64,000 nt of DNA from Eledone cirrhosa (Eukaryota), in the NCBI GenBank assembly GCA_964016885.1, contig OZ024743.1, forward strand, positions 365,924,001 to 365,988,000. The letters run 5' to 3'. Positions 39,480 to 40,867 of this stretch are shown here, piece by piece. The number at the start of each line of letters is the position of its first letter. Position 1 is the first letter of the stretch. Both the position numbers and the translations under genes were made by a program. The notes beneath the pieces were generated by a model. It had not been told where the DNA came from, made no database searches, and was given only the letters and a program-made list of their open reading frames with translations.

Positions 39480-40001
39480 TTATTTTGAAACTTTTTCATT
39501 ATTTGCTAAACCTTGTTTATATTTGTTCTGGCTCGTTAATTTATTAACCTGCCATTGAACCACACTGGCATTTGGTTGGACAATACATGCGTACCTTAGC
39601 GCCTTGTGCGTGAAGGAACACATATCCTATTATCACTATCTCCTCTATGTTGAGAACAAATTTGGTCGCTCCGACTGCTGCTAGTGATAGCTGCGGCTGG
39701 TTTGACCTACCTCCTTCTGCCTCTATCTTTACTTCGGCCCTTGATAAACCTGTTTCTACATCATCAACTCTCATCCCAGGAACAGTTTTGATAGCGCTAG
39801 TTCGTAATTTAAATTCAGGAATTTTATATTCTTCGAATGAAAAGAACCTTCTGACGAGAATCTTTCTTTGCAACGAAGGCCGTATGGTCTCCGTTTATTT
39901 TTGGGATTCGAAACCGATCGGTAAAGGTAACTATAGTAGGTAAAGTCAATTTTTTTAAATTTATTTTGAAACTTTTTCATTATTTGCTAAACCTTGTTTA
40001 T
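39480..40001 (+). mobile_element. 481-nt hammerhead-containing unit with terminal repeat (retrozyme-like)
   Basis: 39480-39520 repeated at 39961-40001; no credible ORF. Confidence 0.8.
39846..39928 (+). ncRNA. Type I hammerhead ribozyme, intact core
   Basis: acctt-CTGACGA-gaatc..gattc-GAAAC cgatcg GTA-aaggt; palindromic stem III. Confidence 0.9.
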
Positions 40002-40111
40002 ATATATATATATATATATATATATATATATATATATATGTATATATATATATATATATATATATATATATATATATATATATATATATATATATATATA
40101 TATATATATAT

Positions 40112-40867
40112 ATATAATCAAGGTTTAGCAAATAAGAAAAAGTTTCAAAATAAATTTTTAAAAATTAACTTTACTTACTATAGTTACCTTTACCGAATCG
40201 GTTTCGAGTCTCAAAAATAAACGGAGTCCATACTGCAACCGTTGCAAAGAAAGGCTCTCGTCAGAAGTATCTTTTCATTCGAAGAATATAAAATTCCCGA
40301 ATTCAAATTAGGAACTGGCGCTATTCAAAATTCTTCCCGAGATGAGAGAAAATGAAGTGGAATCAATTTTTTCAAGGGCCGAGTGTAAAGATAGAGGCGG
40401 AGGCAAGGAAGTCAGTCGGCTACCGCTATAACTAGCAGCAGTCAGAACGACCAGATTTTTTTCTCAACCAAGAGGAGAATAATAATAGAGTATATGTTCC
40501 TACACGCACAAGGCGCTAAGGAACACACGTATTGTCCAACCATATGCCAATGTAGTTCAATGGCAGGTTAATAAATTAACGAGCCAGAACATATATAATC
40601 AAGGTTTAGCAAATAAGAAAAAGTTACAAAATAAATTTTAAAAAATTAACTTTACTTACTATAGTTACCTTCACAGAATCGGATTCGAGTCTCAAAAATA
40701 AACGGAGTCCATACGACAACCGTTGCAAAGAAAGGCTCTCGTCAGAAGGATCATTTCATTCGAAGAATATAAAATTCCCGAATTCAAATTACGAACTGGC
40801 GCTATTCAAAATTGTTCCTGAGATGTCCCTTAGCGCCTTATGCGTGTAGGAACATATACTCTATTAT
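40112..40867 (-). mobile_element. ~1.5 tandem copies of a related 481-nt hammerhead unit, with a short inverted 5' piece
   Basis: 40116 repeats at 40597; 40828-40866 is the inverse of 40483-40521. Confidence 0.8.
40186..40269 (-). ncRNA. Type I hammerhead ribozyme (second tandem copy at ~40667-40750 is degenerate)
   Basis: ctt-CTGACGA-gagcct..agactc-GAAAC cgattcg GTA-aag. Confidence 0.8.

Follow-up and report, generated by a model that had tools for sequence, protein, structure and literature searches.

Two insertions of a non-coding hammerhead element, very probably of Penelope-like type, in Eledone cirrhosa, and a candidate circular RNA template

Metazoan non-LTR retrozymes are described as non-coding units arranged head to tail, each with one type I hammerhead and a GC content below 45%; a Penelope-like element (PLE) has been proposed as their helper and a circle as the template for their reverse transcription (PMC7229834; 10.64898/2026.07.22.740005). 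Reverse transcription of circles beyond unit length was also proposed (PMC4209133, PMC7229834), and the idea is already published for both retrozymes and PLEs. The available parts of these sources present circle-templated retrozyme copying as a proposal and contain no demonstration of it (PMC7229834, PMC4209133, 10.64898/2026.07.22.740005). The retrozyme survey of Li et al. 2026 covered 35 genomes, with no mollusc named in the accessible part of that work (10.64898/2026.07.22.740005).

Insertions of EN+ PLEs are recognised by being partly tandem and truncated at the 5′ end, by inverted arms, by a tail found at one end (described qualitatively) and by a bias towards (TA)n (PMC8557442). For PAc, the one PLE tested in vitro, Frangieh et al. 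2024 reported two internal reverse transcription start sites; hammerhead cleavage was dispensable, and the principal substrate was RNA that had not been cleaved (PMC11167929). The origin of the tandem, inverted and tailed insertions of PLEs, and the role of their hammerhead, are stated to be open in PMC8557442 and PMC11167929.

Two facing insertions in one (TA)n tract

The window analysed is a stretch of 64,000 nt (contig positions 365924001–365988000) from a microsatellite-rich genome of 3.0 Gb. An earlier note had described in it two diverged families of 481-nt hammerhead monomers, tandemly repeated and placed tail to tail across one (TA)n. The features of the locus are as follows, with monomer position 1 defined as window position 39480.

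39480–40003, + strand: left insertion, a 5′-truncated copy from young subfamily A; it spans 1.09 units of the non-coding 481-nt monomer and has its 3′ end at site A
39525–39633, + strand: 'tail' of two hairpins, lying between site A (~39518–39522) and site B (~39630–39633), the two fixed 3′ ends
39846–39928, + strand: intact type I hammerhead of the left copy, with predicted cleavage after GUA, between 39923 and 39924
39999–40116, no strand: (TA)59 microsatellite, the common target of both insertions
40112–40825, − strand: right insertion, main arm: 1.48 units from older subfamily B, with the 3′ end at site A
40186–40269, − strand: downstream right-copy hammerhead, with an intact core and with mismatches in stems I and II
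40667–40750, − strand: upstream right-copy hammerhead, with changes to its catalytic core (GAAT, GUG triplet)
40824–40867, + strand: inverted 5′ arm belonging to the right insertion (monomer ~110–154); it runs at site B into (TA)n 40865–41015
41546–44390, + strand: neighbouring 5′-truncated PLE, with a 713-aa frame (41711–43852), a YRDD RT and a GIY-YIG-like end

The 481-nt period was confirmed on both sides: the offset-481 repeat is 43 nt long with 100% identity on the left (39480/39961) and 235 nt with 95% identity on the right (40110/40591). Both units are 481 nt long and, as the earlier note had seen, homologous yet diverged, being identical in 411 of 485 aligned columns (~85% homology). 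The copies lie on opposite strands with their 3′ ends facing each other across (TA)59, so the tail-to-tail arrangement also stands. Tandem repetition held only in part; both sides exceed one unit, but by little on the left and by about half a unit on the right, and 40824–40867 is a separate inverted arm.

The nearest other genomic copies are 99% identical to the left copy. The two passes of the right main arm differ from each other at 11 of 183 sites, and the nearest other copy of that arm is 96% identical. A single event producing the tail-to-tail pair was ruled out, as its arms differ at 67 of 471 sites. The left and right copies are thus two separate insertions into one (TA)n, from a younger and an older subfamily of one lineage. 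Such pairs recur at L075, with 10 differences between the arms over 272 sites, and at L155, where families C and D face each other across one (TA)17. The tail-to-tail layout is therefore a by-product of shared (TA)n targeting. L155 (C1:150481000–150484500) is a hot spot in which four insertions, of A-type, D-type, C-type and a PLE fragment, are chained via microsatellites.

The left hammerhead consists of stem I, a CUGACGA core, a 7-bp stem II, a long loop with a sub-hairpin, GAAA and a palindromic stem III. All 12 of the tested pairs are canonical and the structure lies 2.1 kcal/mol above the minimum-energy fold. The right copy has two hammerheads 481 nt apart, both damaged, and for each the minimum-energy fold is lower by ~9.7 kcal/mol. 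Of the 12 expected pairs, 10 form in the downstream one and nine in the upstream one, which has GAAT in place of GAAA and GUG at the cleavage triplet and from these changes is likely dead. Of the stems quoted in the earlier note, the right-hand one (gagcct/agactc) contains a C-A mismatch. Because the left copy has a single hammerhead and both of those on the right are damaged, neither window copy is a likely source of monomers or circles, and release of a monomer from these copies by cleavage at consecutive ribozymes, as the note had envisaged, is unlikely. The locus represents two ordinary copies, which are probably inactive. Rfam matched no hammerhead in the window or in the left unit, which is probably due to the long loop 2.

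Several other features were noted in the window. LINE-type RT fragments lie at 3–2552, 4406–5431 and 26772–29934, one frame terminating in C2H2 zinc fingers; broken Helitron-like Rep/PIF1 helicase frames (PF05970) at 34451–37444 (−); three copies of an 83-bp unit, with an 81% match, at 38688–38933; and more broken ORFs, resembling the type of the neighbouring PLE and including a 450-aa frame (48111–49460), at 47524–49842 (+). A long near-perfect inverted repeat between TA runs (18203–19363), with CTGATGA..GAAA motifs at 18487 (−) and 19078 (+), probably represents a further end of PLE type, again with an arm in inverted orientation.

The family, its ends and its hammerhead

A 25-nt word from the hammerhead has 959 exact matches in the genome (reversed control 0), the 20-mer adjoining the cleavage site downstream has 1,943 (control 0) and a pattern that picks further relatives has 1,649 (control 5). 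These are motif counts, not copy numbers; related units in the genome number more than a thousand. The 20-mer tally is skewed by strand (841 forward, 1,102 reverse), a skew absent from the 25-mer and pattern tallies, and may reflect one long array outside the matches listed.

A tree of 82 near-full monomers forms a ladder that runs from the right-hand type through intermediates to the left-hand type. Right-hand-type copies are 92–96% alike and left-hand-type copies 96–99%. The two types are distinct, but the 'two families' of the earlier note are two points on this subfamily ladder, with intermediate subfamilies 88–92% identical to both. Older relatives have the same plan: family C, of 488 nt, is 66–74% identical, and family D and others are about 50% identical. 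The suggested conservation of length is exact between the two window units but otherwise approximate, at 479–488 nt among A–C copies and 459–528 nt among the wider relatives, family D included. Units occur head to tail with periods of 481–485 nt, as dimers to multimers of up to 10, and at least two intact motifs were present in 18 of 120 arms. A 241-nt contig of depth 2 from a second organism (run X5) was 95–99% like the left unit and had a 481 back-joint, a thin observation.

The monomers have a GC content of 0.35–0.39, and the elements are ragged at the 5′ end, TA-joined at the 3′ end and lack an LTR. A coding role was ruled out because no frame is conserved, in keeping with the earlier statement that there is no ORF: the 98-aa frame of A is missing from B and C, and a sense ORF of at least 80 aa is present in 11 of 82 monomers. 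Folded as a circle, as the note had suggested, the monomer is branched and 57–59% paired. This is slightly better than shuffles (z −2.6 to −3.1, 25 shuffles), but the antisense strand behaves likewise and the result was not counted as support. A viroid-like autonomous RNA was ruled out, given a fold that is branched and not rod-like and a CUGANGA-GAAA motif confined to one strand.

By sequence and structure, each unit has a type I hammerhead. For a covariation test we hand-picked 16 related hammerheads out of 59 distinct variants and used our own structure, and kinship among them inflates the test. Both sides had changed in 11 of 20 pairs, the core was invariant apart from its variable position, and the compensatory score was reached by none of 500 shuffles and lay above all slid controls. 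The stems have been maintained by compensatory change across ~50% divergence, which indicates that the hammerhead is kept intact by selection; cleavage itself is a prediction. Unrelated type I hammerhead families, some with a long loop 2, recur at L022, L035, L044, L093, L105, L121, L137 and L244.

The 3′ ends fall at two places. Among 197 arms at 138 loci, 121 end at site A (monomer ~39–44), 57 at site B (monomer ~150–154) and 19 elsewhere; the locus set had 16 loci removed by hand as duplicates (L116 wrongly), and L016/L120 may be a remaining segmental duplicate. The two sites are ~110 nt apart and both end in TAT (UAU in RNA), and 172 of the 178 A or B ends run into TA. The same two loose ends, A and B, appear in contigs of run X1, which, like those of runs X4 and X5, are of unrecorded kind and give no measure of true ends, strand or level. 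The 5′ ends are spread over all monomer registers. With the 3′ ends fixed and only the 5′ ends varying, the genomic copies are not free circular permutations of one monomer, which the earlier note had raised as a possibility.

Inverted 5′ arms were found in 55 insertions at these 138 loci, and 43 could be classified at both ends. Of these, 42 have one A end and one B end, one is AA and none is BB (P~1e-11); the window's right copy is a one-A-one-B insertion. We found neither the family nor this counted one-site-per-arm rule described in the literature; Repbase/Dfam or paper supplements may list the family under another label. The word 'ribozyme' is absent from the main text of the O. vulgaris repeat annotation (PMC13282606). 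The tail between A and B forms two hairpins that are retained across families, the first nearly invariant and the second with seven compensated pairs, among 18 predicted in total. It is likely a protein-binding platform.

Main arms exceed 481 nt in 41 of 92 cases and 962 nt in eight; this set was chosen by the hammerhead or post-cleavage word, so that the shortest copies are missed, and some of its short arms are family D fragments. Partial tandems of 1.1–1.9 units with arbitrary 5′ ends predominate, and both arms of an inverted insertion can exceed one unit (L092, L146). The partial tandems, inverted arms, one-end tail and (TA)n bias match the PLE signature, and the two fixed 3′ ends match the pair of internal RT start sites in PAc. 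The element is very probably a non-autonomous hammerhead element of PLE type, a non-LTR retrozyme.

Template and enzyme

Long arrays are nearly uniform. L092 has about 10 + 2 passes on its two arms, with two variable columns in 5,685 bases, one of them at the inversion joint; L140 has about nine units, with three private substitutions and no shared-derived ones in 4,327 bases. At subfamily-type sites, passes within an insertion differ by 0.3% (50 tandem) or 0.6% (28 inverted), compared with 7.3% for random pairs. This uniformity carries the caveat that very young arrays are uniform under every model and that assembly polishing is able to homogenise repeats. In ~251 passes, the cleavage junction shows one deletion and no insertions. 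Were the template a linear cleaved monomer with priming at A, 80-nt copies beginning at the cleavage site would result; TA-joined 5′ ends at monomer 436–450 were found at only 16 loci genome-wide (our reduction of 34 rows), eight of them at 443–446, compared with 1,943 matches of the adjoining 20-mer. This is an approximately two-fold enrichment at the cleavage site (8/16, P=0.04), where a native TA favours such joins. Since few 5′ ends lie at the cleavage site and the junction is seamless, the template appears to have been mostly continuous across the ribozyme, and a ligated circle would be the best explanation of continuity across a selected ribozyme. At the family level, the earlier proposal that more-than-unit insertions fit a circular template gained from the main arms longer than 481 nt, the near-uniform long arrays and the compensatory change in the hammerhead. 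We lean towards a circular RNA as the template for reverse transcription.

Some observations point elsewhere. The 5′-end excess at the cleavage site implies that some templates were linear. The copies at L026 and L123 start there yet hold a whole further unit. Shared-derived changes are present in the arrays at L061, L135 and L096, so that DNA-level duplication or conversion also adds units, and the arms of the inverted insertion at L065 are 14% apart, which implies two RNAs or two events. The L061 array (C1:111322580–111326592) has 3.7 units; an insert of ~2.2 kb splits the last one, is non-coding, carries direct terminal repeats of 347 bp and resembles an LTR element.

Taken as a whole, the locus is reasonably well explained as two insertions of a non-coding hammerhead mini-retrotransposon that would use a Penelope-like enzyme in trans and a circular monomer template. 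Copies with two intact hammerheads would be transcribed, self-cleave and be ligated into ~480-nt circles. A Penelope-like RT/GIY-YIG enzyme, acting in trans, would bind the two-hairpin tail and nick both strands of (TA)n, with sites A and B each serving to prime one cDNA. The RT would pass the ligation point, making from less than one to about ten laps, and the two cDNAs would join head-to-head. Each insertion would leave adjoining (TA)n, and later copies would therefore land beside earlier ones.

In a double rolling-circle version, a two-headed PLE enzyme would prime both nicked (TA)n strands on one circular RNA, with the priming sites flanking the two-hairpin platform and both RTs rolling round the circle. 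A common circular origin of both arms of an insertion is a tentative idea that we think rather doubtful. If true, the 42/43 one-site-per-arm rule and the near-identical passes of L092 would be a genomic record of double rolling-circle reverse transcription, which would account for PLE tails, inversions and tandems together. The element, being short, young and multi-subfamily with more than a thousand units, gives countable predictions on an open PLE mechanism (two start sites, one per arm; cleavage-site read-through; lap number), and at ~480 nt is a substrate suited to an in vitro test of PLE copying.

With element and borrowed enzyme unchanged, the template might instead be a linear multimer, produced by transcription of tandem arrays and cleaved in part or not at all; the hammerhead would then serve only to free 5′ ends or to aid the fate of the transcript. 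Arrays of 9–10 units exist, PAc uses unprocessed RNA in vitro (PMC11167929) and the mild 5′-end excess, including the two copies with a whole further unit, is in line with such a template. With fixed 3′ starts, however, copies never outgrow their template, yet multimers that are uniform within themselves occur in each of several subfamilies; ribozyme-made 5′ ends should accumulate at the cleavage site, where there is no pile-up; and the hammerhead stems have been retained by compensatory change over ~50% divergence. We consider this template unlikely. If the RT, having reached the 5′ end of a linear cleaved monomer, jumped without a seam to that molecule's own 3′ end, a circle would be mimicked; this would account for the uniform passes, the selection on the hammerhead and the mild 5′-end excess. 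Template jumps usually leave scars. The near-absence of indels at the junction and the very small number of copies that stop at the cleavage site make such jumping improbable.

Satellite-like DNA expansion of single insertions by unequal crossover, discussed by Li et al. 2026 (10.64898/2026.07.22.740005), would fit the shared-derived changes at L061, L135 and L096. It is a very improbable source of the tandems in general, given the predominance of partial tandems with arbitrary 5′ ends, the inverted insertions with both arms longer than a unit and the presence of only private changes in the two longest arrays. Even less credible, and largely refuted, is the view of the units as plain pseudo-LTRs left behind by an autonomous PLE that was truncated. 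The architecture is like that of PLE ends and the genome holds at least 150 GIY-YIG loci, with several RT-GIY-YIG families (150 loci scored of 10,597 candidates). However, blastn and nhmmer found no nucleotide homology to the element in the 50 GIY-YIG loci compared with it, and upstream of a unit there is another unit, not an ORF. A PLE-protein match lies near 23 of 139 element loci, but in 22 of them a (TA) run intervenes before the nearest match, and in the remaining locus that match is on the opposite strand. Flank comparison and tblastn found no copy collinear with a PLE ORF at these 139 loci or at 30 more from the cross-family pattern; copies that continue into an RT ORF, which the earlier note had named as evidence against its reading, were not seen at these loci.

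Among the GIY-YIG loci are some whose ORFs combine RT and GIY-YIG and have a YLDD motif; we take these to be Neptune-like. For the enzyme of the favoured reading, with its circular template and helper in trans, one such family (L186/L187) is a candidate, as a lead only: it contains a stretch resembling a hammerhead, whose stem I and cleavage context are those of the element, and it ends in (TA)n. The neighbouring PLE at 41546–44390 was ruled out as a parent, as it has no nucleotide match to the monomer. It has an inverted 5′ arm (41546–41730), two TA-joined ends ~150 nt apart and an atypical hammerhead-like motif near 44147–44185; its 713-aa frame has no Pfam match and 64 homologues.

Comparison with known systems

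With its head-to-tail non-coding units, type I hammerhead, low GC content of 37–39% and dimers to multimers, the element is, at the level of sequence, a non-LTR retrozyme. Its units of 459–528 nt compare with 150–450 nt as typical in PMC7229834 and 51–972 nt in 10.64898/2026.07.22.740005, and its hammerhead loop 2 is expanded to ~38 nt with a sub-hairpin. Here the insertions are mostly dispersed and 0.5–2 units long, and they have inverted arms and 3′ ends fixed at two sites. Retrozyme circles have been shown by northern, and circles of the present element are a prediction from sequence; Xenopus retrozymes are reported to have a sequence link to a pLTR, whereas none was found here in the 50 GIY-YIG loci.

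Chlamys PLEs such as MRC1 resemble the element in being non-autonomous, with multicopy insertions arranged head to tail and a pLTR-like structure (PMC8557442). Unlike it, they are green-algal, are described in the accessible part of that paper as mostly without hammerheads, and have a 3′ end similar to that of their autonomous partners (PMC8557442), whereas no autonomous partner of the element was found in the 50 GIY-YIG loci.

The EN+ PLEs (Craig et al. 2021) share with the element partial tandems, 5′ truncation, an inverted 5′ arm and an optional one-end tail; EN+ PLEs and PAc also share AT-rich or (TA)n targets, a pair of internal RT start sites and a type I hammerhead shortly upstream. The element differs from EN+ PLEs in having no ORF and in a tail of ~110 nt rather than the 30–40 nt given for PLEs. 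Its start sites both end in UAU, matching the target, whereas those of PAc are reported as non-homologous to the cut DNA. Finally, in contrast to EN+ PLEs, a single insertion here can contain up to ~10 units.
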